Program-made: the position numbers and the translations under genes
The notes under the pieces: generated by a model
Told to the model about the DNA's origin: nothing
The model's database searches: none
What the model saw: only the letters and a program-made list of their open reading frames with translations
NCBI GenBank assembly: GCA_949282205.1
Contig: CASDOS010000034.1
Span: 5,972 to 69,971, forward strand
Direction of reading: 5' to 3'
DNA length: 64,000 nucleotides
Source: an uncultured Alphaproteobacteria bacterium
Lineage (GTDB): Bacteria > Pseudomonadota > Alphaproteobacteria > RF32 > CAG-239
In this document: positions 29,049-63,138 of the stretch, piece after piece
Layout of the letters: each line of letters begins with the position of its first letter
Position numbering within the stretch: position 1 is the first letter of the stretch

Positions 29049-29057
29049 TGTCTACTC

Positions 29058-31716: not shown

Positions 31717-31823
31717 ATTTTGACCCATTTTTAAATCCAACCTAACTCTACAATAAATATTAAAAAATAATTAATCAAGCATAACACTTTATTTATAAAA
31801 CGTTTTGTTGATTAAATTTTTAG

Positions 31824-38897: not shown

Positions 38898-38969
38898 TTT
38901 ATTAACGCATTATCAATAAGTTTAGGATAATTAGTAAATAATGATATAGATTATTAGGGAGGGCGCGAT

Positions 38970-41153: not shown

Positions 41154-41851
41154 TGAAAAAGAAGGTATGGGTAATTCTCTTTCTCTCAATGTTTGTATAT
41201 ACACGAGAAGCGTATGCAATATTTGATATTATGGCAACAGTTCAATCCATTCTGGAGCGTTACAAAGATGTCGAAAACAAGGTTCAGGAATATCAGAAAA
41301 AACTAAGAGATGTTGAAAAAAGAGCAAGGCAAGGGTTTGATTTAGCAAGCAATTGTTATAAAAATCCGACCAAATGTGATGCCAAAGCGATAGAGGCATT
41401 TAGCAAAGATTCTGAAAGCTACGTTAAAAGTTTAAAAGAAATAAAAGTAATGCCCGGCGCAGAAGAATTAAAAGAAGGCGATTTAAAGAAAAAGAGTGAC
41501 AGCAGCTTAGCGCAAACAGTAGAGAACGCGTACATATATAAGAGAGGTCAAGGACAAGATATAGAAAAGACAGCAGAAAATCGTCGATATTTAAATGCGA
41601 TAGTCGCGGATGATACGGCATTATTATTTGCAAAAGGGGTATCTGCGCGTCAAAGTATTTTAGTAGAAGATGGTTCACTTTATCAGTCAGAATTTAAGAA
41701 TGAGAATATGGATGAAATATTGAATGCGCAAAATATAGTAGCGATAGCTACGGAACAAAGATTAAATAGGATACTGGAAATGCGAGCATACATGACGAGT
41801 GCAGGATCGACAGCCGAATTAACACAACAAACCAGAGAAGCGGATGAATAG
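41153..41851 (+). CDS. VirB5/TrbJ-like protein (array member 3, canonical VirB5 size)
   Basis: 232 aa. Signal peptide ...REAYA, then IFDIMATVQSILERY, an all-helical charged body, and a TAATG overlap with member 2. Confidence 0.55.
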   Translation: MKKKVWVILFLSMFVYTREAYAIFDIMATVQSILERYKDVENKVQEYQKKLRDVEKRARQGFDLASNCYKNPTKCDAKAIEAFSKDSESYVKSLKEIKVMPGAEELKEGDLKKKSDSSLAQTVENAYIYKRGQGQDIEKTAENRRYLNAIVADDTALLFAKGVSARQSILVEDGSLYQSEFKNENMDEILNAQNIVAIATEQRLNRILEMRAYMTSAGSTAELTQQTREADE

Positions 41852-43208: not shown

Positions 43209-46200
43209 GAATGCTACAAAATCTGATCTTAGGTGTACTTATCTTAGGTTCAGGAATTCAAGAGGCCAAAGCATTTTTCTTATTGCCACCGATGCCATGG
43301 GATATAGAAGTGGATGTACCGGCCAATGCCAATAAGATAGTGTCCAATGCAAAAACACTATATCGTCAAGCTCAAACCATAAAGTCTGAATTAAACAGTC
43401 AGAAATTGGAAATTCTGAAAAAAGGACAAGCCTTTTTAAATACAAAATTTAAAAAACAAGAAGAAGGTGGAAAAAACAAAGCCCCGGGGAGAGGGGAGCT
43501 TCGCAATAGTAGTCTGCTGAAAATAACGGAACACGGATTGAATGAAGAGGAAAACTTCAACGCATTTCATACATTATTTTTGGTATATCCGCCCAAGAGT
43601 TCATATCCTGACAACTATCCGGCAGCCAAAGTTGCTTATATGCGTAAAGCTGATGAGTACAAGCAAGATGTGATTATGGAAACATACTTAACCGGTCGAG
43701 TAACAGAAAATTACCTAGCCTTAGTAGAAAAAACAATTGAGCGCTTAGATCACTGCCAAAAAGGCTTATACACCGAGGCGGAGATGGCTGAACATTGTGT
43801 GTTTTTCGGTTTACAAATGGCCTATGTGGAGCCGAAGAAAGAAAACCTAGACAATGAAGGAAGTCCGGAAGAGAGTACAAATCCCGGACAATATGGAGAA
43901 GTTCTGAATGCTTACATTGTAACAACCGTTTACGATAGGCTAATGCGTATCGTAGAGGATTTAACAGGTACGGAGGCTCAATTCATATCAGCGATACAAA
44001 TTGATAGTGTAGATCCGCTAGAGCCGGAGGAACAGAGTTCTGCGGAGGAATATATTGAAAAAGGATATAAGTTTGCATATAACGAGAGCAAGACATACGC
44101 TTTAGCGACAGGACAGATGTTGGGCGGAAATTATATTCGTAGTCAAGAGTGTGCAAACGGTGGAAAAAATTGTCCTGACGAGAACGAAGATGTAGCCGAG
44201 ATTAAAAATACGGATGACACGGCGATATTAGGTAAATTACTACCGATTGATGAGCAATTAAGAAATGCAATGAATTTGCACAATTTAAAATCAAAATTAG
44301 ACGAATATAAGACTCAATACAGAAAATACCTTAAATCAAAAGAAATACATGAAAGAATGATGAAGGTACTAAAGAAGAGTGAGGAAAGTGTAGTTAGTTT
44401 CTTAGATAGATACAGTGGCGGCAAGGGAGAAACGATTTGGTATAACGGAAATAAGCCGGCAAAAGTAAACGAGCACGAAAATCGCGGAGGTCTATCGAAA
44501 GAAGTAATTTTAGAATACCAAGAAGACACGACAGACAAGTTAATAGGTACGGATACTGGTGAGTGTGACGGATTTTATGAATCATGTCCGGATGGATATG
44601 AATTAGATAGTGGCAATCCATGCGTATATACAGATAATAATGGAAACAGCGTAACGAGCGCAACAATGTTTGCTTGTGTATTAAAAACCGTAACATCAGA
44701 CACCGATCCGGAGGGAGATCCGAAAGTTTCTTTTGAACCAAAATTAGAAGAAAACTACAGTATAGCGGGAGCGAACAATCAACGCGACTACAATGATACG
44801 GACTACTTTGAAGAAGGTAACCAAGCAGAAATCGTAGAAGTAGATAATCGTGTCAAAGCCGAGAAGAATTGGCGTATCGGCTATGATAAAATTATGAAAT
44901 TAACGGAAGATGGCACATTGAAATTTGAGCCGTGGAATGACCAGAAAAACCTACAAACAGAATATTTGCGCAACAAATATCGCAATATGAGAATGATAGT
45001 CAAAACAGCGGATCAAGGTCTATTATCGCAACGAGTAGCCAAAGTATTAGCTAATGAGAGCAAAAATATCGGCCCGATAGAAGAAGTATTACCAGCGGTA
45101 TCTGTCTGCAAATTAACGACAGACGCAACGGAAGATGCATTTAATCAAGACTGCTCAGACTATAGTGGTTCGTGCTCACAAGGAGGAGACACCGCATCGT
45201 GCTCTGGTACTAAGGTCCAACAATGCTATACATATGATTCGGAAGGAAATATAAGTTACTATTATGTGACATTATGGTGTAAAGTAGATGGTGATAACAA
45301 CACCGGAAAGATTAATGGTTACAAAGAAGTCGGATGCAGCAAGAGTACTGTCGGTATAAGTTACAGTCAGACGATTAAGAGTTTATCGGGAGGCTGCGAT
45401 TTCACAAAAGCCGGAAGTGATTATCACGCCGTCGAGGATACAAGTGAAACATGCCCGAGCAAATGGGATTTAACCACAAAATTCTTAGTACGCAGATACA
45501 TACCGGGTGTAACGGCAAGTTGGATAAATGGTGGCAGTTATGAATCCCAATGTCAGATGGATTTAGGAACAGAAACATTGGATAAAGAAAACACGCACTT
45601 ATATACAAATACCAACACAGCCGGAAGGGTTGTTGCCTCAGATCATTTCCAAGAGCTTATAGAAATGCGTAAAGAGCTTGAGAAAAAATTAAAAGCGATG
45701 GTTGATGAATATGAGAAGAGCATGCAAAGTCTAAAAGCAACGCTACGCGCAACAATTGCAAGCAGAAGTGAGTATGGTCAAAAACTAAGTGACAAGACGG
45801 ATGAAAAGAATGAGCTTGTGCAACAGCGCCAACGTTCATTAAAACGAGCAACGGCAATTATAGCGCAAATAGAAGAACTAAATACACGCGTCGAAGAATT
45901 GCAAGCACGTCTGGATGAAAGAAAGCCAACTCCCAAAAGTTTACAAAAGGAGATTGAATCACTAACAATTGGTGCCGGTGAAGATATGGATAAATTTGAA
46001 AATCCGACCTTAGCGCAGCGGATAGGACAGATTCCAGCCTTAAAAGAAGAGTTAGCTTTTATCTGTTACAAAGCACCGACAAACGACGATGATTATAAGG
46101 TATGCAAAGAATATAGTGGTACAGCTAATAAAGAAGAACCGTATGATGAAAATACGCGAGAAGAAGATAAATTCGAAAACGTAGCCGATTTACATACAAA

Positions 46201-48646: not shown

Positions 48647-49405
48647 ATGGTCAATTTAATAAATCAAAAAATATTGCGTTTAACCGATAAAGCTCGGACG
48701 AAAGACGCGCCAGCTTTTATAACAGAAGATGTCATAGAAGTAAAAAGAGCAAAATTGATTTATTACAAATGGATAAGCAGGCTAATGGCCATATTAGCGA
48801 CAATATCTTTGCTATATGGGGTATGCACGACGCTTTCAATTTTAAAGTTAGCTCCTGAAATCGTAATAGATCCACAGTTATTTGTAGAATTATCAGATTC
48901 TCAATCAATGGTAAAACGCGAAAGAGTCGATCGCTGGATGGAATCTCGAGAAAAGATAATGATTAATTTTATGAAACAATATGTAGAGCTTCGCAACACA
49001 TACATAAAAGATGAAAAAGAAATGAACAATCGCTGGTTATGGGGTGGTTTAGTTTCATATTTATCAACATATCCTGTTTATAAGGAGTTTGAGAAAGTTT
49101 TTCCGAAATTAAAAGAAGAGATGGTAGAGAAAGAAAGTAGCCGCTCGGTAGAAATACTTTCGGTAGAGAGAACCGGAGGGGAGAACAGTAATACATGGAA
49201 GATAGAATTTAAGACATATGATTTTACCTTCAAGCAAAATAGGCTAAGCCGTCGAGCCAGTATTACCCCAACAATAGAAGAAAAATATTGGACAGCGAAC
49301 ATTCGCGGCTATGTAGATCCCAACAGGAGAACGGCATATCGTCGTCTATTAAATCCATTAGGATTTGTAATATACAGTTATTTTCAAAGTGAAATAGAGA
49401 TTTAA
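48647..49405 (+). CDS. virB8: type IV secretion protein VirB8, paralog 1
   Basis: 252 aa with a cytoplasmic N-terminus, a single TM (LMAILATISLLYGVCTTLSIL), then an NTF2-like region beginning NFMKQYVELRNTY. Confidence 0.8.
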   Translation: MVNLINQKILRLTDKARTKDAPAFITEDVIEVKRAKLIYYKWISRLMAILATISLLYGVCTTLSILKLAPEIVIDPQLFVELSDSQSMVKRERVDRWMESREKIMINFMKQYVELRNTYIKDEKEMNNRWLWGGLVSYLSTYPVYKEFEKVFPKLKEEMVEKESSRSVEILSVERTGGENSNTWKIEFKTYDFTFKQNRLSRRASITPTIEEKYWTANIRGYVDPNRRTAYRRLLNPLGFVIYSYFQSEIEI

Positions 49406-49547: not shown

Positions 49548-49736
49548 ATGTATAAAGCATTAGTTATAGGTTTTGGCATATTAATATTAGCTGCTTGTAA
49601 TTTAGTGGGAAGTTATTATGAGCCGGAACCCGTAGGTATAGGTAAAGATGTCTACGAATTAAAATTATCACCGTGTGCATGCATAGAAGTTGAATTACCC
49701 AAGACATTACCTGATTGGTTTAAGGCAATGAGTTAA
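49548..49736 (+). CDS. VirB7-like small lipoprotein
   Basis: 62 aa with RBS GAGGAG and lipobox ILAAC. It sits between two virB8 genes, upstream of virB9. Confidence 0.6.
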   Translation: MYKALVIGFGILILAACNLVGSYYEPEPVGIGKDVYELKLSPCACIEVELPKTLPDWFKAMS

Positions 49737-49756: not shown

Positions 49757-50515
49757 ATGGTTGAGCAGATATCCTCAGAAAACACTAAAAAACTTTTATT
49801 GGAAGGGCAAGGAGCAGAAAAGCCCCATCCCAGGGTAGTACGCCCACAAAAAAGAGGTAATGCGGATATTATAGTAGAAAATGCAACAGAAAAAAGGTAT
49901 TTGTGGACAGCTCGAGCGTTTGCTATAATTTTTGCAGTAAGTTTATGTTGCAATTTAATTTTAACGTATGTGGTAATTGCAATTATGCCATTGTATCGGA
50001 TAGAACCGTATTTATTTAGTTTTGCAGAAAAAAAAGACCAAATATATACAATACATCCTGTGAAAAATATTTATGAGTACAAATATTTAACAGAGATTTT
50101 TGTGCGGGAATATGTATTGTTGCGAAACACATTTGTAAACAATATTGAAGAGATGGAGCAGCGTTGGGGGGCAGGTGGAACGTTACAAGAAATGTCCTCC
50201 CCGGGAGTATATAATCAGTTTCGAGAAAATTTTGCAGATAAAGCAATTGATTTAATAAGAAACCACAATATAACCAGAAACATAAAGATATCCTCAGTAA
50301 CGGAAGTAGGCGGGAAGAATGGAGAGATGTGGTGGCAAGTAGAATTCAGGGTAGAAGATATGATGCCGGAATATGAAACACCACGATTAAGTGTGTGGTT
50401 GGCGTCAATAAAAATACAATATAGAGCCAAAAGGGTAACTTTTGGAGAGAGATTAAAAAATCCTTTAGGGTTTACGGTACTCGATTATAAACAGGTTGAG
50501 CGAAAAACAAATTAA
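49757..50515 (+). CDS. virB8: type IV secretion protein VirB8, paralog 2
   Basis: 252 aa with the same architecture as paralog 1 (TM AFAIIFAVSLCCNLILTYVVIAI; FVREYVLLRNTF). Confidence 0.8.
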   Translation: MVEQISSENTKKLLLEGQGAEKPHPRVVRPQKRGNADIIVENATEKRYLWTARAFAIIFAVSLCCNLILTYVVIAIMPLYRIEPYLFSFAEKKDQIYTIHPVKNIYEYKYLTEIFVREYVLLRNTFVNNIEEMEQRWGAGGTLQEMSSPGVYNQFRENFADKAIDLIRNHNITRNIKISSVTEVGGKNGEMWWQVEFRVEDMMPEYETPRLSVWLASIKIQYRAKRVTFGERLKNPLGFTVLDYKQVERKTN

Positions 50516-50532
50516 ATAGGTGTAGGAATTTG

Positions 50533-52518
50533 ATGATGAAAGTAGCAAAGATTTTATCTATAGTAATAATATCAATAGGAATAATAGTTCCCACCGTATA
50601 CGCGCAGGTAACAAAAGATAATTTGGATCAAAATGCTGACCAGAGCCAAGGGAATTACGCGGCAACCAATTTAAATTATTTAGGCGGAGGCGGATCATTA
50701 GGTATGATGCAGAGTGCATGGAAAGATCCGTTGCAACACATGGGAGAAGGACAAACGCGTCCAGGCTATACAAAGTACTATTGGACACCTGAATTAGTTT
50801 TACCTGTAAGAGTAAGAGAAGGTATGTACACATTAATAAATTTTCCGAATTGGGAAGTTATAGAGAATGTGTATATCGGCGATGGACAATCATTCAATGC
50901 GGAAATACAAGGTCCGTCAAGTTTAATGGTATATCCGGATTCTTCACAATTTGTTGGAGTAGATACCAATATGATTGTTTTTGGTCGGTCTGGGAATAAA
51001 TACGTTTTTTATGTACAAAGTGAAACTGTCAATACCGATAGGATAACCAATGCGATAATAGATATAGAGGTTGTTAAAAGACGTCAAAATGCAACAGGTT
51101 CTGCCGTAATAGGAAGTAACAATGGTGGAGGACATATAAATGCGAACGCGTATGGGCAAAATGGTAGCAGCGCGGATGCAACTTTTACAAGGGATTTGCA
51201 AAAAGAGGACTGGATTGAAAAAATTCCGGTAGATCCAACAAAGTTTCGATTTGATATAGAAGTATATGTTCCTAATCCAGATGATATAGTAATAGCACCG
51301 GAGCGTGTATGGCGCGACAATATTTTCACTTATATAGATTTAGGGGACAAGGCCTTAACAGCAAATCAAAGACCGATAGTAACACTAATTGTAGAGAGGT
51401 CGGAAACCCCGGTAGGTTTTAGAACGGCGGGACCGAATAATCGCCTGATAATAGTGGAAGGTATGGGCGATATGGTTCTTCGCAGTGGTAAGAGAATAGT
51501 CTGCTTAAAATTAAGACGTTCAGATTCGGATGGCTTAGAAAATACAGTTTATGCTAAAACGAATGAATGGGATTTGCAGGCTAAGAATTATCAAAGAGCA
51601 ACAGAAGGAAAAGAAAGTAATACAGAATCATATGAGAATGTATACACAGGTGATGTTCAAAAAGAAAATAATCAAAAGAAATCATTCTTTGGAATCAGCT
51701 CGTTCTTTGGTGGCTCACAAAATACGGATAGTTCAACAACAGATACCAATGGCCTAAGCTACGAAGATATGATAAGCGGTAAAAAGAAAGCGTCCGGTCA
51801 ACAATCCGAGAAAGCCTCAAATGTGGAAAACACAACACCGCAAGATAAGATTAAGCCGCAAACAAATATAGAAAGCAAAACCGAAGAAACAGCTTTGTTA
51901 AATTCAATACCTAAGGCAAAAACATATGTTGCATCTCCAACTCCGCAAGAAAGTGGAATAGAATTAACAGGGCAGTATGATACAAAAGCAGATGGAGCCG
52001 AATTAGTGACGCCACAATATGAGAATAAGGCGGATATATCAGTAAGTTACCAGAAAGATGTTCAGCAAAATACAACAATTCCGGAAAGTGTTAAGCAAAA
52101 TGCTTCAACTCAAGTCGGCGTCTCAAGCAACAATTCAAGTCCTGTCCTGATTACGCCTAAAGATGAAAGTCTAGAAAAACAAAATTCATTAGTTAATGCT
52201 GAAACAGAGGCATTACTCAAAGAGTTTAGAGATGGAAGAGCCTTTTCCAATGCTGATGAGAGCAACATTTCCATAGAATTGGGAACGGATAAAGATGTAA
52301 ACAATTTGGAAAAATTATGGAATGACATATCCAAAAATTACTCAGCGACGTTAGGTAAATATCAGCCATTTTATTCAGTAGACACACCAGCAGACGGACA
52401 GGGAAAAGAAGTGTTTCATCTTCGTGTAGGTCCTGTAAAATCATTAGATGAAGGCGATAATATATGCAGCCAATTAGGTCGTAACGGAATATTTTGCAGT
52501 GTGGTCAGAATACAATGA
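50533..52518 (+). CDS. virB9: VirB9/TrbG-family outer-membrane core protein fused to a C-terminal SPOR domain
   Basis: Signal peptide ...VYAQV. The VirB9-like core runs from about 50700 to 51540 (YTKYYWTPELVLPVRVREGMYTLINFP...MIVFGRSGNKYVFYV...RIVCLKLRR). A ~240-aa Q/S/T/N/E-rich linker follows, and the last ~85 aa are SPOR-like (FHLRVGPVKSLDEGDNICSQLGRNGIFCSVVR). Confidence 0.8.
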   Translation: MMKVAKILSIVIISIGIIVPTVYAQVTKDNLDQNADQSQGNYAATNLNYLGGGGSLGMMQSAWKDPLQHMGEGQTRPGYTKYYWTPELVLPVRVREGMYTLINFPNWEVIENVYIGDGQSFNAEIQGPSSLMVYPDSSQFVGVDTNMIVFGRSGNKYVFYVQSETVNTDRITNAIIDIEVVKRRQNATGSAVIGSNNGGGHINANAYGQNGSSADATFTRDLQKEDWIEKIPVDPTKFRFDIEVYVPNPDDIVIAPERVWRDNIFTYIDLGDKALTANQRPIVTLIVERSETPVGFRTAGPNNRLIIVEGMGDMVLRSGKRIVCLKLRRSDSDGLENTVYAKTNEWDLQAKNYQRATEGKESNTESYENVYTGDVQKENNQKKSFFGISSFFGGSQNTDSSTTDTNGLSYEDMISGKKKASGQQSEKASNVENTTPQDKIKPQTNIESKTEETALLNSIPKAKTYVASPTPQESGIELTGQYDTKADGAELVTPQYENKADISVSYQKDVQQNTTIPESVKQNASTQVGVSSNNSSPVLITPKDESLEKQNSLVNAETEALLKEFRDGRAFSNADESNISIELGTDKDVNNLEKLWNDISKNYSATLGKYQPFYSVDTPADGQGKEVFHLRVGPVKSLDEGDNICSQLGRNGIFCSVVRIQ

Positions 52519-55500
52519 ACGAGAATACGCGATTTGAAGAATATGAAAGAAAGACACGAAAGATAATTTTCACCATAGGAATTATCGCATTCTGTTTTTT
52601 CTTGTTTGGATTATTGATATTATCATCAGATACAGAAGTCTATAATCCGGAAGAAGCAACTCCGGACTTTGTCGAGAACCAAAATATATTGCCAGAAATA
52701 ACAGCGGATACCGGACCGATATTTATTGATACGGAAGCAACAACAGGGGATACAAAAAATAAGCCGATAAAAGTCACGCCAGCACAAATTAACATGAACA
52801 AATTTATTCTAGGAGTTGATGTTCAAAATCAAAGCGTTTTAACAATAGGAACGGATGGCAGTGAGAGCATACATATAGAAAGAGTAGAGTTAGTAGAAGA
52901 AACCGAAGATGGATTTGAATTTAGAGATAAATGCAGAAACCGAGATTTACGAGGAGATGAAACATGCAATATTTTAATAAGTTGGGCACCCCATTTACCG
53001 GGTAATGTTCAAAACAATTTTAAGATAATATGGTATGAAACACGTTTAGATAAATCGAGTGCCAAATCAGAAGAAGTAAGTATTAAGGGCAGTGCGGTGT
53101 ATCCTGAAGATAATCAACAGAATTGTGCTGCGGGAGGAGGGTGCACAATAAGTGAAGATGGAGGCATAGGTGCGCACCGCTTAGCAATAGGTCCAAACGG
53201 GGAGATAATAGGTTATATAGATGAAGCCGGAAATGTCCATGACAAAGATGGTAATATAATCGGTCGTGTAAATGAAGATGGGTTAATAATCGATTCAGAC
53301 GGAAACATAATAGGTGTTGCTCAGAATATGAAATTAGCCTATGACAAAGATGGGAATATTATAGGTTATGTCAAGACAGATGGAACAGTAGTCGATTTAC
53401 AAGGGGAGGTAATAGGGAAAGCTCTTCCGGATGGAACAATAGTCAACAGTAAAGGCGAGATAATAGGGAAAGCGGTTGAAGCAGGTTTTGTATATGATAA
53501 AAACGGAAAAATAATAGGCCGCGTTTTACCAGATGGAACAGTTGTCGATATAAATGATCCCAAAAAGATTATAGGGCGTTTGAATGAAAATGGAGAAGTC
53601 GTTGATGAAAATGGCAATATTATAGGGAAAGTAACATCTGCCGGCAATATTGTTGTAGATGAGAATGGAAATGTTCTAGGCGTTGTAATGCCGGATAACA
53701 GTGTTGTAGACCAAGATGGAAATATTGTAGGTTATGTGGATGAAAATGGCAATGTTTACAAATTAGCAAAAGAAAAGATAGGAACAAATGGAGATAGTAG
53801 AAAAATTGTTTATGATAAGAATGGTAAAGCAATAGGCTACATAGATGAAAATGGCAAAGTAGTTAAGTTTGCACAAGACAAAGATAAACCGGAAATAATA
53901 GGAAAGGTAGGCGTAAGTCGCAGATTAGCATACGATAAAGACGGTAATGTTATCGGTTATGTAGATAAAGATGGAACTGTAAAAGATTTTAAGGGAAATA
54001 TAATCGGGAAGATAGATAAGGACGGTAATATAGTAGATAAGAATGGTAATATTATAGGTAAAGCAGGAGCTTATGCGAAATTAGCGCTAGATAAAGACGG
54101 TAAAGTAATAGGGTATGTGGACGAACAAGGAAGAGTGTTTGACCATAATGGCAAACATATCGGAAATGTAGATAAAAATGGTAATATCATCGGAATAAAA
54201 AAAGCCGAAACCAATGGAGATAAAAAAAGAATAGCTTTAGGTTTGGATGGTAAGCCGATAGGGTATATTGACGATGATGGTAATGTAATAGACTTTGAGG
54301 GTAATATTATCGGCAAGGTAAATGAAAAAGGAGAAATAATCGGCAAGAATGGGAAAAAAATTGGTACTGCCGGCGGATATGGTACGGTAGCCTATGATAA
54401 GAATGGAAAGATTATAGGTTTTGTGGACGATAAAGGGCGAGTAATCGGGAAGGATGGAAAACTCCTGGGATATGTAGATGAAAAAGGACAAATTATAGGT
54501 ACGACGGGAAAAATAATAGGGCGAGCCGGAACAACAAGAGAAGTAGCCTATGATAAAAATGGGAAATTCATAGGTTACGTCGACACGGATGGAACCGTAA
54601 AAGGATGCGGCGGAGTAGTTATCGGTAAGAAAGACGCCTCAGGAAATGTAATTGATAAAGAAGGAAAAGTGATAGGAAAGGTTAAAGGTGTAAAAGAGTT
54701 AGCCTTTAATTCACAAGGAGTATTTATCGGATATATTGATGAAAAAAAGCGGGTAATAGACTGCGATGGAAAGATAATAGGTGTTGTTGATAAAAAAGGA
54801 AACATCATCGCATCAAGTGGAGAAAAACTGGGAACAGCCGGTAATTATAAAAGATTAGCATATGACAAAAACGGGAAAGTAATCGGATATGTAACACCCG
54901 ATGGGACGGTAAAAGATTTCAAAGGTAACTTAATAGGTCGAATGACTGAAGACGGAACAATTCTTGATAAAAAAGGAAGAGTTATCGGAAAAGCCGGAGA
55001 ATATAGGCAAGTGGCCACAGACAAAGACGGCAATATAATAGGCTATGTAGATGAAAATGGCCGCGTGGTAGATGAAAACGGAAAACTAATAGGTTTCATA
55101 GATAAAGACGGTAATGTGATTAAAGCCGGTACAACCGTAATCGGTAAAACATGTATTAGAAAAAAGGTTGTAAAAAACAAGACCGGAAACATCATCGGTT
55201 ATTTAGATAAAAACAATATTGTAAAAAATTTCAGTAATAAGGTTATTGGGACGAATAAAAATGGAGATATCGTTGATAACAAAGAATTATTGATAGGAAC
55301 GGTCGGGGAAATAATGAATATAGCACAAAAAGGCAATGGTGAAATTGTTGGCTATTTAGATGCTAGAAACTACGTTCGAGGAGATGAAAATAAAGTTATA
55401 GGTATTGTTGATATAAAGGGAAATGTCCTTGGAGCAAAAGAAAATATAGTAGGGATCCTTGATGCAGATAAAAAAACGGTTAAGGATAAAGGGAATAATG

Positions 55501-58500
55501 AAATAGGCTATGTGAAAGAGAATAACTTTGTGTTCGATAAAGGGAATAAATTAATAGGTTATGTAACAGAAGACAAAGAGGTAAAAGCCGTTGGAGAGGT
55601 AATATGTACAGCATGTAAGAGTGTAAAGTTGGCATATGACAAGGAAGGTAATATTATTGGTTATGTTGACGAGAATGGCAACGTGATAGATGAAAACGGC
55701 AACATTATTGGTAGAGTAGATGAACAAGGTAATGTTATAGATAAAGATGGTAAAATAATAGGGAAAGTTGGCGAAGCCAGAAACTTAGCCTATGACAAAG
55801 ATGGAAAAGTCATTGGCTATGTAGACAAAGATGGATCAGTCAAAGATTTTAAAGGCAATGTAATCGGATATGTTGATGAAAATGGTAACATTCTGAAAAA
55901 CACCAATGAAATCATCGGTAGTGTTGGAAAAAAAGGTAAATTAGCGTATGATAAGAACGGTAAAGTTATCGGTTATGTTGACAAAGATGGTAATGTCTAT
56001 GACTTCAAAGGAAATTTGATAGGTAAAGCAACAAAAGATGGCAAAATAATAGATCAATACGGACGAGAGATAGGAAGAGTCGGCGAAATAAAAAATCTCG
56101 CTGTGGATAAAGATGGTAAAGTTATCGGATATGTTGGCGAAGATGGAAAAGTCTACGGAGAAAATGGAGAACTCATAGGGTTTATGGATGAAGACGGCAA
56201 CATCATAGGCGTAACAGGCGAAGTTATCGGAAAAGCAGATACAAATCGTCGACTAGCGTATGACAATGACGGCAATGTAATAGGCTACATAGACGAAGAT
56301 GGTACGGTACGAGATTTCAATGGCAATTTGATAGGCTATTTAGGAGAAGATGGAAGCATTAATGACATAAACGGGAATATTATAGGTAAAGCCGGTGATT
56401 ATGCGAAAGTCGTACTAGATAAAGATGGCAATGTAATAGGTTATGTAGATGAAAAAGGCAGAGTAATAGGAAACGATGGGAAAGTCATAGGATTCGTTGC
56501 AGAAGATGGGACTGTTTATGAAAGTAGCGGAGAAGTTATAGGTAGATTAGCGGAAAAGGGCGAAGGTAATTTAAAAGTGATATCCCGAAAAGCCGTATTA
56601 GATAAAGATGGAAATATAATCGGATACATTGACGAAAACGGGATTGCAAGAGATTTAGATGGGAATATATTGGGAACCGTACAAGAAGACGGAAGTATAA
56701 AAGACAGCAAAGGAAACATTATCGGTCATGTAGGCGGAAATGTAGAATTTACGGTGGATGAAAGTGGGAAGATAATAGGTCAAGTAGGAGATTACTCAAA
56801 TCTAGCAATAGATGAAAATGGTAATGTAATAGGATATATAGGGAGTGATGGAAAAGTATACAATGCCAACGGTATAGTCATCGGATATATTGATGAAAAT
56901 GGCAATGTTATAAGCACCCATGGCGTAAGAATAGGAACAGTTATAAAAAAAGACATGGTAGCCATTTCCCCGGCAGGATATAGCTTAGGTATAATTAACA
57001 ACAAGGGAGAGGTAATCAATAACAAAGCCGAAGTTATAGGGAAAGTATTGCCTAATTCGCTGATAAAATCCACAGAAGGAGATAAGATAATAGGAAAAAC
57101 AGTCATGGGAGGCATGGCCATAGGCTGGGGGTGTCAACATCTGGGGATGGTAGAGAAAGATGCAAAAGTAAGAAAAGATGGAAAAGAAACCGATTATCGA
57201 ATGCTTTTTGACAGAAGTATTGTAGATAAAGACGGGCAATATGCCGGCGACATAGCCAAAACAGGAACAGTTAGAGATGAGAAATGCAATGTTATAGGTA
57301 AAGCTGGATACGATGGATTTGTGCGTAATGAAGAAGGCGGATACGTTGGTTGTGTAAATCCGGACGGAGGTGTTTTGAATCAAGACGGACAATTGATAGG
57401 AAAAGTTTTTGAACCCGGATATGCATTATATTACAGCGGAGAGATGATGGGAAGCATGAATCAAGACGGAAAGATTATGGTAGGTTCACAAGCAATTGGG
57501 TGCACAAACTTTGATGGCGAAGTATTAAATAAAGATGGTTTTATCATCGGTCAAATTATGGATAAAACACAAGCATTCGGAGTAGAAGGAGATTTCATAA
57601 ATAATCTATCTGTCTTTAAGTATGATAATACGCAAGTAATACCAAACACAAAAATATTATTTAATAAATATCTGGTAAATCCGAAATTAGAAATAAAAGG
57701 TGTTTTGCTACCTGAGAAGAATATTGTAGTGGATTCAAATGGAGAAATGATAGGACACCTATTTGCAGATGGATATGTGTATAATCAAAAAGGAATAGCA
57801 ATAGATAAAATTGCGTATGAAGGAAATTCTTTTTACTCCAATAAACCTGGGAAAATAATGCAAAAAGGAAACGTGGTTGATTTTAATGGCAACTACATAG
57901 GATTTGTGAATGATTCCGGAAAAGTAATAGATGCACTGGGAACAGAATTAGGGTACATAGATGGAAAAGGACGAATGTTTGATAAGCAAGGAGAATATAA
58001 AGGAGGAATAGTCAAGACCGGTGTAGGAATAGGATATGATGGTTCGTACTTAGGCTATGTAAGTAAGAGTGGGAAAGTAATAGATATAGATGGCAATATA
58101 AGCGGAAACGTTGGTTCTGAAGGTCACATATTAGATAAAAATAAACAAATAATAGGGGAAGTTATTCAAGAGGATTTTATAATTGATATACAGGGAAAAG
58201 TCAGAGGATATTTGAATGCCTTGGGTGATATTATAGATAATGAGGATAACATAGTGACAACCATACTACCCGGAGGAACATCAAATAAAAATTATAACGT
58301 ATTAAAAAGAGGCGTAATACTAAATTATTCAGGAAGAGTAATAGGTCAAGTTGTAGCGGATGGAAGTGTAATATCCAACGATAATGTAAAAATTGGTCAT
58401 ATATTAAATTCTGGTCAAGCCGTTAATGACAAAGGAATACTAATAGGAGAAGTTGTCGAAGATGACATAGTGATTAATGAAAATGACCAAGTTGTAGGTT

Positions 58501-58796
58501 TTATAAATGCGGAAGGCAAGGTATTAGATAAGGAGAAATCCACAATAGGAAAAATCATATCATCAAATTTAGTTGTAGATAACAATGGAAAAATATTGGG
58601 ACATAGTTATAAAATAGGTGCTAATATACTAGGCAATGACGGAAAATTTTTGGGCAGATTATCACCAAACGGAACGATATATAGTCTGACAAATGGAAAA
58701 ATCGGATATTTAAAGAGTAATGGATCATATGTAAATATTCGAAACAAGGTTTCCGGATATGTATTAGATGAAGTGGCGCAAAACCGGAGGAACTAA
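52515..58796 (+). CDS. giant membrane-anchored repeat protein (about 2090 aa) of unknown function within the T4SS operon
   Basis: ATG 52515 overlaps the virB9 stop (ATGA). It has a short basic N-terminus, one TM (IIFTIGIIAFCFFLFGLLILS) and a ~150-aa beta-rich domain with two Cys residues. From about 53180 onward it is an uninterrupted run of DxDGxxIG-type repeats to the C-terminus. Confidence 0.85.
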   Translation: MNENTRFEEYERKTRKIIFTIGIIAFCFFLFGLLILSSDTEVYNPEEATPDFVENQNILPEITADTGPIFIDTEATTGDTKNKPIKVTPAQINMNKFILGVDVQNQSVLTIGTDGSESIHIERVELVEETEDGFEFRDKCRNRDLRGDETCNILISWAPHLPGNVQNNFKIIWYETRLDKSSAKSEEVSIKGSAVYPEDNQQNCAAGGGCTISEDGGIGAHRLAIGPNGEIIGYIDEAGNVHDKDGNIIGRVNEDGLIIDSDGNIIGVAQNMKLAYDKDGNIIGYVKTDGTVVDLQGEVIGKALPDGTIVNSKGEIIGKAVEAGFVYDKNGKIIGRVLPDGTVVDINDPKKIIGRLNENGEVVDENGNIIGKVTSAGNIVVDENGNVLGVVMPDNSVVDQDGNIVGYVDENGNVYKLAKEKIGTNGDSRKIVYDKNGKAIGYIDENGKVVKFAQDKDKPEIIGKVGVSRRLAYDKDGNVIGYVDKDGTVKDFKGNIIGKIDKDGNIVDKNGNIIGKAGAYAKLALDKDGKVIGYVDEQGRVFDHNGKHIGNVDKNGNIIGIKKAETNGDKKRIALGLDGKPIGYIDDDGNVIDFEGNIIGKVNEKGEIIGKNGKKIGTAGGYGTVAYDKNGKIIGFVDDKGRVIGKDGKLLGYVDEKGQIIGTTGKIIGRAGTTREVAYDKNGKFIGYVDTDGTVKGCGGVVIGKKDASGNVIDKEGKVIGKVKGVKELAFNSQGVFIGYIDEKKRVIDCDGKIIGVVDKKGNIIASSGEKLGTAGNYKRLAYDKNGKVIGYVTPDGTVKDFKGNLIGRMTEDGTILDKKGRVIGKAGEYRQVATDKDGNIIGYVDENGRVVDENGKLIGFIDKDGNVIKAGTTVIGKTCIRKKVVKNKTGNIIGYLDKNNIVKNFSNKVIGTNKNGDIVDNKELLIGTVGEIMNIAQKGNGEIVGYLDARNYVRGDENKVIGIVDIKGNVLGAKENIVGILDADKKTVKDKGNNEIGYVKENNFVFDKGNKLIGYVTEDKEVKAVGEVICTACKSVKLAYDKEGNIIGYVDENGNVIDENGNIIGRVDEQGNVIDKDGKIIGKVGEARNLAYDKDGKVIGYVDKDGSVKDFKGNVIGYVDENGNILKNTNEIIGSVGKKGKLAYDKNGKVIGYVDKDGNVYDFKGNLIGKATKDGKIIDQYGREIGRVGEIKNLAVDKDGKVIGYVGEDGKVYGENGELIGFMDEDGNIIGVTGEVIGKADTNRRLAYDNDGNVIGYIDEDGTVRDFNGNLIGYLGEDGSINDINGNIIGKAGDYAKVVLDKDGNVIGYVDEKGRVIGNDGKVIGFVAEDGTVYESSGEVIGRLAEKGEGNLKVISRKAVLDKDGNIIGYIDENGIARDLDGNILGTVQEDGSIKDSKGNIIGHVGGNVEFTVDESGKIIGQVGDYSNLAIDENGNVIGYIGSDGKVYNANGIVIGYIDENGNVISTHGVRIGTVIKKDMVAISPAGYSLGIINNKGEVINNKAEVIGKVLPNSLIKSTEGDKIIGKTVMGGMAIGWGCQHLGMVEKDAKVRKDGKETDYRMLFDRSIVDKDGQYAGDIAKTGTVRDEKCNVIGKAGYDGFVRNEEGGYVGCVNPDGGVLNQDGQLIGKVFEPGYALYYSGEMMGSMNQDGKIMVGSQAIGCTNFDGEVLNKDGFIIGQIMDKTQAFGVEGDFINNLSVFKYDNTQVIPNTKILFNKYLVNPKLEIKGVLLPEKNIVVDSNGEMIGHLFADGYVYNQKGIAIDKIAYEGNSFYSNKPGKIMQKGNVVDFNGNYIGFVNDSGKVIDALGTELGYIDGKGRMFDKQGEYKGGIVKTGVGIGYDGSYLGYVSKSGKVIDIDGNISGNVGSEGHILDKNKQIIGEVIQEDFIIDIQGKVRGYLNALGDIIDNEDNIVTTILPGGTSNKNYNVLKRGVILNYSGRVIGQVVADGSVISNDNVKIGHILNSGQAVNDKGILIGEVVEDDIVINENDQVVGFINAEGKVLDKEKSTIGKIISSNLVVDNNGKILGHSYKIGANILGNDGKFLGRLSPNGTIYSLTNGKIGYLKSNGSYVNIRNKVSGYVLDEVAQNRRN
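53180..58790 (+). repeat. in-frame coding tandem repeat array (unit about 10-17 aa, super-repeat about 50 aa)
   Basis: The block LAYDKDGNVIGYVDKDGTVKDFKGNIIGKIDKDGNIVDKNGNIIGKAG recurs. More than a dozen anchors of the form [LV][AV][YLVT]D[KNE][DN]G[NK][VI]IGY[VI][DG] are visible by eye, and the repeats become more degenerate after about 57000. Confidence 0.9.
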
Positions 58797-61700
58797 GTTG
58801 CATAGAAACATAATAAGATTAAGCAAAATATTAAAGCTGACGTTTTTATGTGTAGTTATTGGCTTGAAAGCAATGGCAGCAGATATCAGTGCGCTTAATT
58901 TTAATGGCGACTTGATTGGAAAAGTAATTCCCGACGGAGCGATAATAAACAGCAATAATGAAGTAGTAGGATATATAACGGCAGATGGCTTTGCATATGA
59001 CAATGAGAATAATTTAATAGGAGGAGTTGTACCGCAAGGAATAGCCATATCATATAATAACAGCATATTAGGAAAAATTAATAATGATGGTTCGGTAACA
59101 TCTATAAATGATAATTTAATCGGTAAAGTACTCCCCAATGGGTTAGTTGTAAATGACAATTACGATATTTTAGGAGCCTCAATATCACCGAATTTAGTAT
59201 ATAATGATTTAGGGGAAGTAGTAGGAAGAGTATCCGGAGATGGTAAATTTTACAATTTGTCAGGAGAAAATACTGGGTTTGTTACGGCAAGTGGATATGT
59301 TTATTCAAATTCAGGAAATGAGAATAAAATCAATTTAATAGGCAAATTAATCACATCAAAAATAGTAATATCCACAACGGGAAAATATCTTGGAAGTATT
59401 GCGCCCGACGGAAAGGTTATGGATTTAAAAAAGAATATTATAGGAAATATTCATGCCAATGGTTTCGTTTATAATAAGGAAGGACAAGCGATTGGTCATG
59501 TAGTTGATAATGGGTATGCCTTTAATAATAACGGTCAATATATAGGAGTAGTCAGCTATAATGGGGAGGTTGTAAACAAAGGTACGGTAGTAGCACATTC
59601 GGTTAATGGAAATAGAGTAATAAATAAAGAAGGGAAGACAATAGGTTTTACCGTAAGTATGTTAGCAACAGCTAATACGTTAGAAGGCGAATATCTGGGG
59701 CGGATTACAGCAGAAGGGAAGATATTAAATAAAAGAAACATAGTAGGAACAATAGGCGCATCAGGAAAAGTCATAGATGAAAAAGGTGAAGTCATTGGAA
59801 TTATAAATTCAGAAGGTCCTATTTTTGATTATTTAGGAAATTTGCGCGCCAATGCATCCATAGGTGGAAAAGTAGTATCATTAGAAGGGGTGGATTTAGG
59901 GAAGATTTTTCAAGGAGAAGCGATTGACAATAATGGTAAAGTAATAGGTCGGACGCTAGAAAATAACTTATGTTTTAACAACAATAACGAATTTTTAGGA
60001 ATAAGCGGAATAAATACGACATTAAGAGCAAACGGTCAAACGTATAAAATTTCACCATACGGCTATATTTTTGACGAGAATGGAGAAATAAACGGTATAA
60101 ATATTAAGCAAGGCGGCATATATACAGAAGACGGAACAACATTATCTTTTACATCAAATGATGGCAAAACAGAAAATGTATCATTAAACGAGATAGCAAA
60201 ATTTACAGGGAATGGAATTTTTCTGGATAAAAATAATAAACTACTGGGAAAAATGATAGCAAGCAAGTTTATTACGAATTTTGCGGGAGAAATGGAAGGA
60301 GTAGTGAACTCAGGAAATTTGGTTGTAAATTCCCAAAATAAAATATTTGCAAAGATTTTGCCTGATGACAATGTTGTAGGTATATCGGAGCGTTTTTCAC
60401 AAAATCACGGAAGATCCAATAATGCCCCCATAAGCATAAGTATAAATGGTGATTACTTGGGTTCCAATAGTTTAACAGGGCAAGTAATAAACGGATCAGA
60501 GATAATAGGCAAGGTAAGCTCCAGTGGGTATGTAATAGACAATATGGGAGCATTATATGGAAAATCAATAAAAATGGGCACCATTATCACGCCAGAGTGT
60601 AAAGCAGTAGGTGTTGTATCAAGTAATGGCGAAGCGAGAACCTCAAAAGATGCATATTTAGGTATGATATTGGCAAATAAACAAGTATTGAATGAAACAG
60701 AGGAAGTTATAGGATATATTACTGAGCCACAAGCAATAAACGGAAAAGGCGGAGAAATAATAGGTGTAAGCAATACAACCGGAAGTGTATTAAACTACAA
60801 CAACCAGAATTTAGGATGCGTTGATAAAAACGGAAAAGTTAGGAACTCTCAACAAGAAATAATCGGCCAGATAATTCCATATATGTCAATAATGGGATTT
60901 GATAATAAGATTATAGGTTATACAAATTTTCACGGAAGTGTAATAGATAATTCCGGAATACAAATTGCAACAATAGAACTGGATGGAAGCATTTTATCCA
61001 AAGAAGGAAAAAACATAGGAGTACCGTTTCAATATACGGTAGCATTTGATGCCAATAATATATACTTAGGTCGAGTAAATCCTGATGGAAATGTTGTATC
61101 AGACACAGGAGAGAATCTAGGTACGGTACTACATACCGGAGAAGTAAAGACCAAAAACGGAGATGATGGGTACGCATTATATGATTTGTACATATATGAT
61201 AATGAAGGTCAAACGATTGGATATATTGCTAAAAATGGTCGTATATACAGTATAATGGGAGAATTAAAAGGCTCCATATATCATGGATTTGTCCTTGATA
61301 AAAAACAGAATTTAATAGGTCGAGGTCTAAGAGATTACGAAATAAGGGATAAGAACAATCAAATACTTGGACATTTAAATTTAGATGGTAGTGTTGTAAA
61401 TATTAAAAATATAGAAATCGGCAAGATAGATAGAGAAGGAAAAGTAATTTCTCCATCAGGAGAAATAATCGGTCAGGCCGGAAAACTACAATATTATCAT
61501 CGTCCATCAGAACCCCAAGATGAAGAAATAAATGAAGAAACAACAAATAGTGCATCGGCAGTAGAAGACACTGAAAGCCAAGAAAAAGAAGAAAGTCAAG
61601 AAAATAAACCATTAGAAGATTCGGATGAAAATAGTCCGATTAAACCTGAGGAAAATATTGAAGAAACTTTAACACCAGAAGAACAGGCAGCTCAAGAAAC

Positions 61701-63138
61701 AAAAGAGAATTATCAAGTTATAGGCATAGCTGTAACCCCAGGAGGGCGTTACATAGGGGACGTATATAGCAATAATAAAGTAATTGATGAATCAGGCATG
61801 GAAGTTGGAAGCACCAATGAAAATGGTGATATATTTGACAATGAAGGAAATAAGGTCGGAAACTTCGAAAAGCGGAGAGGAAATAATGAAAGACATGGAA
61901 ATACAAATTGGTATGAACAGATAGCTAAAGGAGCAACAATAAATCCATACAGTAGCGGCAATGAAATAACAAATGTAGGACCTGGTGGTGGCATTGGACC
62001 TGGAGGTCGATATAATCCAAGAAGAGCAGCTATATTATCACAGCTACAAGACGAGAGGCGGAGAACGTTAGTTGCAGCTAAAATAGAGCCAGGATATGAT
62101 GCGGCATCATATACGGGGTGGCAAGACGATTGGGGATTAAAAAGGTCAATATCAACATTAAGAGTCAATATGGATAATATGATAACCGGAGATAAACCAA
62201 TACCGGCCGTATTAGCTCGTTCATTAATATCATTGGGTTCCGCACCTGTAACGGCGATTGTTGAAAGAAATATATATGGCGATACAGGTCGTAATGTAAT
62301 AATTCCTGCAGGAAGTCGTATAATAGGAGGATTACAAACAACAGAAACAGAAGCGAGATTTGATAATACAAGTGGAGGTGTGAAATTAGAAATATCGTGG
62401 GAGAGAATTATACGTCCGGATGGAATAGCCTTTTTATTATCACCAGGAAAGACACAAACGGGGGACGCACAAGGTCGGGGCGGTGGCGCACTAGGATATG
62501 TTGATGAACAACTGGTTAAAAAATATACATTACCGATTGTAGGAACGATGGTCACATCAGCAATAACATATATGATGGCAGCGGACGAAGATAGTACGGG
62601 TGAAGTAGAAAACTCGAAACAGCAAGCTGCATCAGATGCAAGACAAGAGTTTATGGATAAGATGGATCAAATTCTACAAGAAATCATCGACAGTAAATCA
62701 CAAATTGAACCAGTGACATATGTACCGGCCGGAACGAGAGTAATCATTTATCCGATGCAAGATTTATGGTTAAGAAGCACAAAAGATATACAAAGAGGAA
62801 TGACAACAGCAATACCGGGAGGCGGTGAAGGCGGGCTGGTTAATGATACATTCTATGATGGGCAAGGCGGTGGAACATATACATCGACAGTCGAAGGGAA
62901 TAATTCCAAAGGCAGTCAAAAGGTTATTTTGGGAAATCAAGCACAAACAAGTAATTCAAATAACACAAGTAATAACGGAGGAACGCCATTACTTGACGGA
63001 GGAGCAAACAATCAGCAACAGCCACAACAACGAAAAGATGTAGGCGCAATACCACCACCTGCAGCAGATGGCTCAGTAGTAGATGTTCCTGAAAGCGATG
63101 AAGATGAGGATTTTGACAATATGGATTTGTCATTTTAG
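58768..63138 (+). CDS. virB10: VirB10/TrbI-family protein with a ~1000-aa N-terminal repeat extension
   Basis: Basic N-terminus plus TM (LKLTFLCVVIGLKAMA), with a possible alternative TTG start at 58798. Degenerate Gx[VI]xxxxGxx[IL]G repeats run from about 58900 to 61480, followed by an acidic P/E-rich linker (61500-61710). The TrbI/VirB10 core is at about 62130-62800 (IPAVLARSLIS...IPAGSRIIGG...ISWERIIRPDG...GALGYVDEQL). The tail is N/Q/G-rich and acidic. Confidence 0.88.
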   Translation: MKWRKTGGTKLHRNIIRLSKILKLTFLCVVIGLKAMAADISALNFNGDLIGKVIPDGAIINSNNEVVGYITADGFAYDNENNLIGGVVPQGIAISYNNSILGKINNDGSVTSINDNLIGKVLPNGLVVNDNYDILGASISPNLVYNDLGEVVGRVSGDGKFYNLSGENTGFVTASGYVYSNSGNENKINLIGKLITSKIVISTTGKYLGSIAPDGKVMDLKKNIIGNIHANGFVYNKEGQAIGHVVDNGYAFNNNGQYIGVVSYNGEVVNKGTVVAHSVNGNRVINKEGKTIGFTVSMLATANTLEGEYLGRITAEGKILNKRNIVGTIGASGKVIDEKGEVIGIINSEGPIFDYLGNLRANASIGGKVVSLEGVDLGKIFQGEAIDNNGKVIGRTLENNLCFNNNNEFLGISGINTTLRANGQTYKISPYGYIFDENGEINGINIKQGGIYTEDGTTLSFTSNDGKTENVSLNEIAKFTGNGIFLDKNNKLLGKMIASKFITNFAGEMEGVVNSGNLVVNSQNKIFAKILPDDNVVGISERFSQNHGRSNNAPISISINGDYLGSNSLTGQVINGSEIIGKVSSSGYVIDNMGALYGKSIKMGTIITPECKAVGVVSSNGEARTSKDAYLGMILANKQVLNETEEVIGYITEPQAINGKGGEIIGVSNTTGSVLNYNNQNLGCVDKNGKVRNSQQEIIGQIIPYMSIMGFDNKIIGYTNFHGSVIDNSGIQIATIELDGSILSKEGKNIGVPFQYTVAFDANNIYLGRVNPDGNVVSDTGENLGTVLHTGEVKTKNGDDGYALYDLYIYDNEGQTIGYIAKNGRIYSIMGELKGSIYHGFVLDKKQNLIGRGLRDYEIRDKNNQILGHLNLDGSVVNIKNIEIGKIDREGKVISPSGEIIGQAGKLQYYHRPSEPQDEEINEETTNSASAVEDTESQEKEESQENKPLEDSDENSPIKPEENIEETLTPEEQAAQETKENYQVIGIAVTPGGRYIGDVYSNNKVIDESGMEVGSTNENGDIFDNEGNKVGNFEKRRGNNERHGNTNWYEQIAKGATINPYSSGNEITNVGPGGGIGPGGRYNPRRAAILSQLQDERRRTLVAAKIEPGYDAASYTGWQDDWGLKRSISTLRVNMDNMITGDKPIPAVLARSLISLGSAPVTAIVERNIYGDTGRNVIIPAGSRIIGGLQTTETEARFDNTSGGVKLEISWERIIRPDGIAFLLSPGKTQTGDAQGRGGGALGYVDEQLVKKYTLPIVGTMVTSAITYMMAADEDSTGEVENSKQQAASDARQEFMDKMDQILQEIIDSKSQIEPVTYVPAGTRVIIYPMQDLWLRSTKDIQRGMTTAIPGGGEGGLVNDTFYDGQGGGTYTSTVEGNNSKGSQKVILGNQAQTSNSNNTSNNGGTPLLDGGANNQQQPQQRKDVGAIPPPAADGSVVDVPESDEDEDFDNMDLSF
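58900..61480 (+). repeat. in-frame degenerate repeat array inside virB10, same family as 53180-58790
   Basis: Examples are GDLIGKVIPDGAIINSNNEVVGYITADGFAYDNENNLIGGVVPQG and GKVIDEKGEVIGIINSEG. Additional copies lie at about 61720-61860. Confidence 0.8.

Follow-up and report, generated by a model that had tools for sequence, protein, structure and literature searches.

A beta-flower repeat protein encoded between virB9 and virB10 in gut Alphaproteobacteria as the probable N-terminal half of a split VirB10

What is a 2093-residue repeat protein doing between virB9 and virB10 of a type IV secretion system (T4SS) operon? The question is raised by a stretch of 64,000 nucleotides (here, the window) from an uncultured alphaproteobacterium (GTDB lineage RF32; CAG-239; GenBank assembly GCA_949282205.1, contig CASDOS010000034.1, positions 5,972 to 69,971 of the forward strand); all positions below count from its first letter. 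The gene in question (here, the target) lies at 52515..58796 (+). It is listed by an open reading frame (ORF) finder as 52494..58796 (+), that is, 2100 aa counted from a TTG, which is the size adopted in an earlier sequence-only reading of the window by a model. That reading also noticed that the ATG at 52515-52517 overlaps the virB9 TGA at 52516-52518 (ATGA) and proposed translational coupling to virB9. The overlap is there and the ORF is intact, but read from this ATG the protein has 2093 aa (224 kDa, pI 5.2), with its stop codon at 58794-58796. The ORF, its orthologues and their ratios of nonsynonymous to synonymous substitution rates (dN/dS) lead us to conclude that this bitopic protein is, with high probability, the detached N-terminal half of a giant VirB10.

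The N terminus of the target has the topology of a VirB10. A short cytoplasmic tail (aa 1-16, MNENTRFEEYERKTRK) precedes a single transmembrane (TM) segment, the two being encoded by 52515..52625 (+). In a Kyte-Doolittle scan this is the sole strong hydrophobic segment near the N terminus (window aa 13-42, core at about aa 17-37, peak 2.91), and it forms a signal anchor without a cleavage site. An N-in topology fits the basic N-terminal tail and the acidic C-terminal flank and would place the repeats beyond the inner membrane, on the periplasmic side; both this placement and the single TM segment had been proposed from the sequence alone. TrbI (PF03743), the domain that defines the family, is absent from the 2093-aa protein at E values (E) up to 1 in a Pfam scan, and the next ORF has it. 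Lacking that domain, the target should not be annotated as VirB10 itself but as a homologue of the VirB10 N-terminal module. By sequence the full protein has no match in the PDB, and its exact sequence has no entry in the contig collection.

The identification is carried by the relatives of the target. Its best 120 homologues, taken as clusters in a large protein collection, are of two kinds: 26 have repeats only (1155-1581 aa), whereas 94 contain TrbI, most of the latter being 2000-2600 aa long. The first 235 aa of the target align from residue 1 with both kinds, at E 1e-31 to 1e-49 with the repeat-only group and at E 1.5e-17 to 1e-4 with the TrbI-containing giants, and in a 35-sequence alignment of this N-terminal domain (N-domain; alignment A1) the columns C80, C91, W97, P99, W113 and C144 are invariant. 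The fused giants (2170-2600 aa), which come from related uncultured gut and rumen Alphaproteobacteria, hold a tail, a TM segment, an ASH domain, about 1700 aa of beta-flower hairpins (described below) and TrbI in one chain; databases label these single-chain proteins “DUF3659 domain-containing protein” or “hypothetical protein.” The likeness reaches far into the chain, as a four-cysteine (4-Cys) module of the target aligns Cys for Cys with C518/569/591/642 of one fused giant (P0073) and C516/567/589/640 of another (P0061). The sequence-only reading had described the target as inserted between virB9 and virB10 and knew of no canonical VirB component with its architecture; given the homology of its N-terminal 235 aa and its 4-Cys module to the front of TrbI-containing VirB10s, a foreign insertion without relatives in VirB systems is not supported.

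Gene order tells the same story. The operon around the fused P0073 (locus L003) reads virB8, a small ORF, virB8, virB9, a 2354-aa VirB10 and virB11, with no extra gene. The operon of a split relative (L001) reads virB9, a 1373-aa repeat-only protein (P0004), a 1407-aa VirB10 and virB11, so that the slot between virB9 and virB11 is filled by the same pair, target and TrbI-bearing virB10, in L001 and in the window. A survey of GTDB by N-domain, with one genome per species, returned 64 loci, 45 of which are split, the N-domain ORF ending and a separate TrbI ORF following, usually in an overlapping frame. N-domain and TrbI share one ORF in none of the 64, a figure that is silent on the frequency of the fused type since the query consisted of close relatives of the split type. 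No TrbI match was seen in the other 19 loci, most of which either break off too early or contain an orthologue of great length. All survey hosts are uncultured Alphaproteobacteria that live in the guts of humans, mice, horses, deer, yaks, goats and cattle; a few records bear mis-binned names. Orthologues hold the same operon position in about 50 genomes, in agreement with the idea of a conserved T4SS component.

The partner gene downstream (58798..63138, +) encodes the C-terminal half of VirB10, as judged by Pfam, NCBIfam and orthologue comparison. Its start is most plausibly TTG 58798, with GGAGGA upstream, which gives 1446 aa; TrbI matches at E 3.8e-28 (barrel at about nt 62182-62772), Bflower_2 matches at E 1.9e-52, and the NCBIfam assignment is ComB10/VirB10. 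The first residues, MHRNIIRLSKILKLTFLCVVIGLKAMA/AD (about aa 1-27, ...LKAMA/AD), resemble a Sec signal peptide. All 20 partner orthologues inspected show a basic n-region, a hydrophobic stretch of about 12-15 residues and an AxA site, a call made by reading the sequences and not with a predictor. Their mature end, AEITA[VI]DFNG..IGQVI, is highly conserved and is a candidate docking site for the target. Among the 94 TrbI-containing matches, 88 have a TM segment of 20 residues or more after a target-like tail with a shared E[EQ]Y.[KR]K-like motif, and the remainder include six split VirB10s of the signal-peptide type. Because the partners have signal-peptide starts while these 88 relatives have the long TM segment, the inner-membrane anchor was most plausibly kept by the target in the split lineage, the barrel half being exported as a soluble precursor. 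In the mature partner, degenerate hairpins extend over about 1030 aa and include two cysteines, C601 and C674, spaced by 73 residues; the VirB10 next to the target thus carries beta-flower repeats too. This hairpin region (58798-61900, VirB10 aa 28-1030) is more degenerate than that of the target, with just 10 strict motifs, yet hardly differs in length among species. The partner ORFs are nearly constant in length (about 1390-1460 codons from stop to stop where complete).

Both halves point to the same fused relatives. The C601/C674 pair of the partner aligns with the pair 1449/1522 of P0073, and in both proteins the pair precedes TrbI by about 530-560 residues. In a neighbour-joining tree of the TrbI domain, built from 104 sequences and 271 columns and rooted at the midpoint, without support values or an outgroup, the 17 split VirB10s form a nested, monophyletic group whose sister is the fused P0027 group, and the P0027 group also has the N-domain closest to that of the target. 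Because TrbI and the N-domain both point to this group, the two halves appear to share an origin, with the split as the derived state. Since canonical VirB10 is a single chain as well, one fission in the ancestor of the window's clade is the simplest reading. The split is not a sequencing frameshift, because the downstream gene has its own signal peptide, conserved in 20 genomes. Several points weigh against this account and against the function built on it. The rooting and plainness of the tree are one. Another is that a partial tandem duplication followed by complementary losses would give an identical picture and is a possible alternative to fission. When the target and its VirB10 were mapped segment by segment onto six fused proteins, the repeats cross-matched and only the N-domain and TrbI ends were collinear; with modules and cysteine markers duplicated within the fused proteins, no unique break point emerged. 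In addition, the regular array of the target varies more than fivefold in length between species, which is hard to fit with a rigid bridge of fixed span.

The array itself is built of a catalogued repeat and not of an unknown one. The repeats belong to the Pfam beta-flower family (PF21785, PF21784 and PF12396; clan CL0395): Bflower_2 (PF21785) matches the target at E 8.9e-144 in 23 stretches with 470.4 bits against a cutoff of 38, which far exceeds chance, Bflower (PF21784) at E 5e-87 and DUF3659 (PF12396) at E 8e-65, and the latter two hidden Markov models (HMMs) score 288.4 bits against 25 and 215.1 against 24.8, likewise above gathering. The beta-flower fold, for which these families were set up, was recognized among AlphaFold models in 2023 by its short hairpins tipped with [DNEQ]xxG; neither a function nor a PDB counterpart is known for it (PMC10584680). 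Hence the match does not tie the array to any characterized repeat family with a role unrelated to T4SSs. The target contains 63 strict [DNEQ]xxGxx[ILVMF]G motifs at a modal spacing of 17-18 aa (151 loose matches), and a super-repeat-boundary pattern occurs 22 times, most copies lying 52 aa (156 nt) apart and starting LAYDK. One 52-aa super-repeat consists of three 17-18-aa hairpins, and the hairpins total about 1850 aa. Super-repeats of about 50 aa had been described from the sequence alone and are real.

The repeats were also said to be continuous, which holds insofar as hairpins run to the end of the protein but not for their regularity. The regular array (53220..56954, +; about aa 236-1480, delimited by Pfam, motif counts and a slice modeled with AlphaFold2 [AF2], m48477e84245d) has its regular 52-aa blocks in two places, about aa 274-884 and about aa 1039-1480, separated by a degenerate block. 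A distinct C-terminal module of 554 aa follows (57132..58793, +; aa 1540-2093), opening with the 4-Cys module (C1540, C1591, C1613 and C1663), after which degenerate hairpins continue to the C terminus. At the DNA level the super-repeat copies are just 60-76% identical to one another, and Tandem Repeats Finder reported no array in the target DNA, in line with the nucleotide divergence noted earlier. Proline makes up just 0.6% of the array. The AF2 model of aa 1039-1350, made from an alignment of paralogous and orthologous repeat windows, has a mean predicted local distance difference test score (pLDDT) of 82.1 and a predicted TM score (pTM) of 0.57 and shows only short hairpins with strands of 3-5 residues. 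The three-hairpin (52-aa) period differs from the five-fold barrel unit. Foldseek found no global match to it in the PDB; Rhs shells rank best, at TM scores of ≤0.14. Rhs shells, fascin and flagellar hook proteins were rejected as models of the array fold, the likeness being that of local hairpins at the same low scores. EF-hand-like Ca2+ binding by the DKDG turns was also considered, and the motif lacks a Gly at loop position 6.

The domain between anchor and array (52767..53099, +; about aa 85-195) is supported as an ASH/PapD-like Ig-type beta-sandwich by an AF2 model, Foldseek and a profile search. The model (m75cf8104e654) averages a pLDDT of 81.7, and its 10-residue blocks between model residues 21 and 140 have means of 85-96. 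Its PDB neighbours at probability 1.00 are 6fvi (CEP192 ASH), 2e6j (HYDIN; target-normalized TM score 0.72), 1m1s (MSP) and 4lk4 (VesB Ig), and pilus chaperones are also among the best. A Pfam scan run directly on the domain matched no family. In a representative library, a profile of the domain matched 8728 proteins, many of which contain as many as 36 copies in tandem; two of them, taken as examples, score as ASH, Cep192_D4 and HYDIN_VesB Ig domains, with E between 1e-36 and 1e-72. The sequence-only reading had guessed an Ig/PapD-like fold for a beta-rich domain with a Cys pair; the pair (C140/C151) is present and conserved, a second one (C204...C210) follows the domain, and the fold predicted here agrees with the guess.

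Whether the array is maintained was assessed with close orthologues. The nearest (L005) is 96.3% identical in amino acids to the target, has 2093 aa and gives a whole-protein dN/dS of 0.038; four others (L006, L008, L009 and L010) are 83-87% identical over 2092-2093 aa, with dN/dS of 0.026-0.053. Taken separately, the N terminus, the regular array and the C terminus give 0.027-0.054 against L005 and 0.017-0.075 against the other four, except that dS is saturated in the regular array of L006 and L008 and the ratio is not computable there. More-distant relatives differ from the target by insertions of 52, 52 and 213 residues. The repeats are therefore positionally orthologous and individually conserved, neither homogenized nor rapidly shuffled. 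The view of an old, selected array is thereby upheld.

Over longer distances only the array changes. Among 49 complete orthologues with a recognizable 4-Cys module, the N-terminal part is constant, almost all of them having a CxxC close to residue 200. Counted from the first Cys of the module, the C terminus lies 554-555 aa away in the 20 genomes that belong to the window's clade and 565-569 aa away in the 29 that belong to the sister clade. Length variation is confined to the regular array, which ranges from 426 to 2398 aa. In one long orthologue (L020, 9791-19252; 3151 aa) the regular 52-aa array of 2398 aa accounts for the whole excess, as does one of 1970 aa in another (L046, 9767-17971; 2734 aa). 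The array had been proposed as a spacer, fibre or scaffold of the T4SS. The target is indeed a conserved component of the operon; a strict spacer of fixed length is weakened by this range.

How the halves might work together can be outlined on the basis of the single-chain form. In an ancestral single-chain VirB10, beta-flower hairpins would replace the usual proline-rich linker between the ASH domain and the TrbI barrel. In the split form the first gene provides the tail, TM segment, ASH domain, variable regular array and invariant 554-aa C-terminal module, and the second a putative cleavable Sec signal peptide, the conserved mature N terminus, about 1030 aa of hairpins and the TrbI barrel. 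The array is predicted to lie in the periplasm, because the ends of the single-chain form are fixed in the inner and outer membranes and the target has the same anchor. The C-terminal module may dock noncovalently on the constant hairpins or N terminus of the exported VirB10, or on VirB9. By such docking the halves would rebuild a link across the envelope between the inner-membrane ATPase platform and the outer-membrane core complex, the coupling that canonical VirB10 provides; in our estimation this is a possibility just short of an even chance. In the periplasm, many array copies may together form a large cage or cylinder that encloses the channel, a counterpart of the CagY and DotG repeat regions. 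Canonical outer-membrane complexes hold 14 VirB10 copies, and 14 copies of 224 kDa each would amount to a cage of about 3 MDa. Because its length varies more than fivefold, the regular array must be flexible, folded back or decorative; it would thus act as filler and not as a rigid ruler. Taking identity and mechanism together, we lean slightly toward the target being the inner-membrane-anchored half of a two-piece VirB10.

Other explanations start from the same observations. The target could derive from the front half of VirB10 but no longer pair with VirB10 end to end, and be an independent accessory scaffold, like DotF, with an array that binds peptidoglycan, lipid or T4SS parts and tunes or stabilizes the machine. 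The freedom of the array to vary in length, already counted against a two-piece VirB10, suits this idea, as does a VirB9 with a borderline SPOR-like peptidoglycan-binding domain, and the Dot/Icm system indeed has a bitopic DotF beside the VirB10 homologue DotG (PMC6761968). However, an invariant C-terminal module, partner hairpins of constant length and a conserved partner N terminus suggest a specific docking pair, the two genes are translationally coupled with usually overlapping frames, and no beta-flower protein is known to bind peptidoglycan or lipid; we regard the accessory role as rather unlikely. A stalk or adhesin that reaches the surface, its C terminus, freed from the TrbI barrel, crossing the outer membrane and the array serving as an extender that displays the 554-aa module outside, is improbable in our view. 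Its appeal lies in the layout of constant anchor, variable extender and constant distal module, which resembles that of long repeat adhesins, in the animal-gut habitat of the hosts and in CagY, parts of which are reported at the bacterial surface by work cited in PMC6761968. It conflicts with dN/dS of 0.03-0.05 and no sign of diversifying change, unlike the host-exposed CagY or DotG (PMC5954226; PMC6761968), and with a signal anchor that is not cleaved; moreover, the homologous array of the fused relatives is confined between both membranes, and a chain anchored in the inner membrane has no known route through a T4SS.

The two remaining explanations concern what kind of gene this is. A polymorphic toxin or shell protein of the RHS/YD type, linked to the operon by nothing but its position, would account for matches to RHS_repeat (one weak stretch, E 5e-16, 59 bits) and YD_repeat_2x (E 5e-26, 90 bits summed) and for the Rhs shells at the top of the Foldseek PDB ranking. 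Those structural hits have TM scores of ≤0.14 at a root mean square deviation above 20 Å, reflecting local hairpin likeness only. No single YD stretch is above threshold, and in Pfam and NCBIfam no further family, Rhs core and toxin families included, matches coherently at its cutoff. The target ends in hairpins, scores 470 bits with Bflower_2 against 59 with RHS_repeat, and owes its operon position to homology with VirB10 N termini, so that a toxin or shell is very improbable and, as the sequence-only reading had judged, the likeness to RHS/YD repeats is superficial. We therefore rejected membership of the target in that family, as its likeness to closed Rhs shells is no more than local. In metagenome assemblies, artefacts classically arise from long repeat ORFs, whether through collapsed or expanded repeats or a frameshifted, decaying virB10. 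Yet five separately assembled species genomes give 2092-2093 aa without internal stops, the repeats differ in DNA (60-76% identity) under dN/dS of 0.03-0.05, and the partner has a signal peptide of its own in 20 genomes. The chance of an artefact or pseudogene, which the sequence-only reading had named as a danger to its proposal, is accordingly negligible.

A VirB10 half is thus the preferred identity, and several known proteins invite comparison. The single-chain giants (such as P0073, P0027 and P0047) match the target in tail, TM segment, ASH domain, CxxC, 4-Cys module, hairpins and the slot after virB9, but they continue into TrbI, whereas the target stops before it and a separate signal-peptide gene supplies the barrel; the regular 52-aa array of the target is also much expanded relative to theirs. 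Canonical VirB10 consists of one far shorter chain, whose linker is rich in proline. In the form known from Agrobacterium, pKM101 and R388 (VirB10/TrbI), it shares with the target the cytoplasmic tail, the single TM segment, the periplasmic chain and the virB9-virB11 slot; it differs in having TrbI, and the target has a proline-poor array and an extra ASH domain. CagY, roughly 1900 aa long, resembles the target in being a VirB10-family component enlarged by repeats that lie before a TrbI-like domain. This VirB10 orthologue of the Helicobacter pylori Cag T4SS has repeats that recombine rapidly in frame under immune pressure (PMC5954226). It is one chain with fast-recombining repeats unrelated in sequence, whereas the array of the target is positionally conserved under strong purifying selection. 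DotG of Legionella's type IVB secretion system, Dot/Icm, has a TrbI C terminus behind variable pentapeptide repeats, a proposed periplasmic channel cylinder and a bitopic partner, DotF (PMC6761968). DotG/DotF are functionally analogous to the two-gene arrangement found here, but DotG/IcmE keeps its own membrane anchor and DotF is not derived from the DotG N terminus. What sets the present system apart from CagY and DotG/DotF is its beta-flower fold, its added ASH domain and its division into two genes. The beta-flower proteins described so far (PF21784, PF21785 and PF21786) are single 4-, 5- or 6-fold barrels of about 100 aa, some of them lipoproteins (Durairaj et al. 2023, PMC10584680). The target has the same hairpin, the same [DNEQ]xxG tips and Pfam scores far above the gathering thresholds, but unlike them it carries more than 100 hairpins in one chain, a three-hairpin super-period and a link to a T4SS.

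No description of the target or of beta-flower VirB10s was found in the searchable literature. New here are the placement of the beta-flower repeat inside a T4SS and a VirB10 probably made from two genes, with a mechanism that we infer. To our knowledge no T4SS subunit other than VirB10 spans both membranes, and VirB10 is considered to relay conformational signals, driven by ATP, from the inner membrane to the gate in the outer membrane. A clade-wide two-gene VirB10 under strong selection is thus a natural test of the need for covalent continuity. It would also be the third independent repeat-expanded VirB10 linker, after CagY and DotG, and the first found to be built of beta-flower hairpins, giving a fold known from predicted structures only its first concrete cellular setting and a testable role. 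It is conceivable, if unlikely, that the beta-flower array is a new building material of secretion machines, forming either a new kind of sheath across the periplasm, made of dozens of copies of a polymer of more than 100 hairpins from two complementary chains, or, in the split form, a stalk that can extend and take the invariant 554-aa module across the outer membrane; the energy-sensing VirB10 bridge would then need not be one covalent chain. The bacteria that carry these genes are abundant but uncultured inhabitants of human and ruminant guts, and we know of no study of the T4SS of these gut Alphaproteobacteria.

The rest of the operon surrounds the target in the same orientation. The virB9 homologue (50530..52518, +; CagX E 2.3e-14; NCBIfam VirB9) is unusually long at 662 aa. 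Its aa 588-660 (52291-52509) form the borderline SPOR-like domain (E 5e-4, 20.7 bits against a 21-bit cutoff), which, if real, would tie the outer-membrane complex to the cell wall via peptidoglycan. Downstream of virB10, a virB11-like ATPase gene (63215..64000, +; Walker A GGTGTGKTT) runs past the end of the window, and the syntenic virB11 gene in L001 and L003 matches Pfam T2SSE. Upstream are two virB8 paralogues (48647-49405 and 49757-50515, +; Pfam VirB8 E 4.6e-12 and 1.1e-17), and between them lies a gene for a 62-aa lipoprotein (49548-49736, +) with the lipobox LAAC (...ILILAAC/N). It also has a conserved motif, SYYEPEPVG...KLSPCAC. This small gene is conserved at the corresponding place in L001, ORFs of 58-63 aa are called between the virB8 copies in L001 and L003, and its product is a candidate VirB7-like outer-membrane lipoprotein.

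Further upstream of the virB8 genes Pfam identifies a VirB4 gene. Between it and virB8 are an 1811-aa ORF (43193-48628, +) and four more ORFs of 383, 727, 232 and 454 aa (37746-43208); none of these five matches a family above cutoff in Pfam or NCBIfam, and none has more than one hydrophobic segment at its N terminus. The 64-kb window as a whole showed no recognizable polytopic protein of the VirB6/TrbL type, no VirD4 coupling protein and no relaxase. The operon is chromosomal and in L001 adjoins the yidC-rnpA-rpmH cluster. Directly upstream of the T4SS genes, on the opposite strand, is a type IVb-pilus-like cluster (22753-33281, -); among its products are a secretin of the PilN family (29058-30686) and an ATPase of the GspE/PilB type (24558-26222). 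The region 8875-15148 (-) encodes AddA and AddB in their alphaproteobacterial form (TIGR02784 and TIGR02786, each above cutoff), which assigns the window to the Alphaproteobacteria; their ORFs overlap by about 140 nt as listed, and the true AddA start is probably further downstream.

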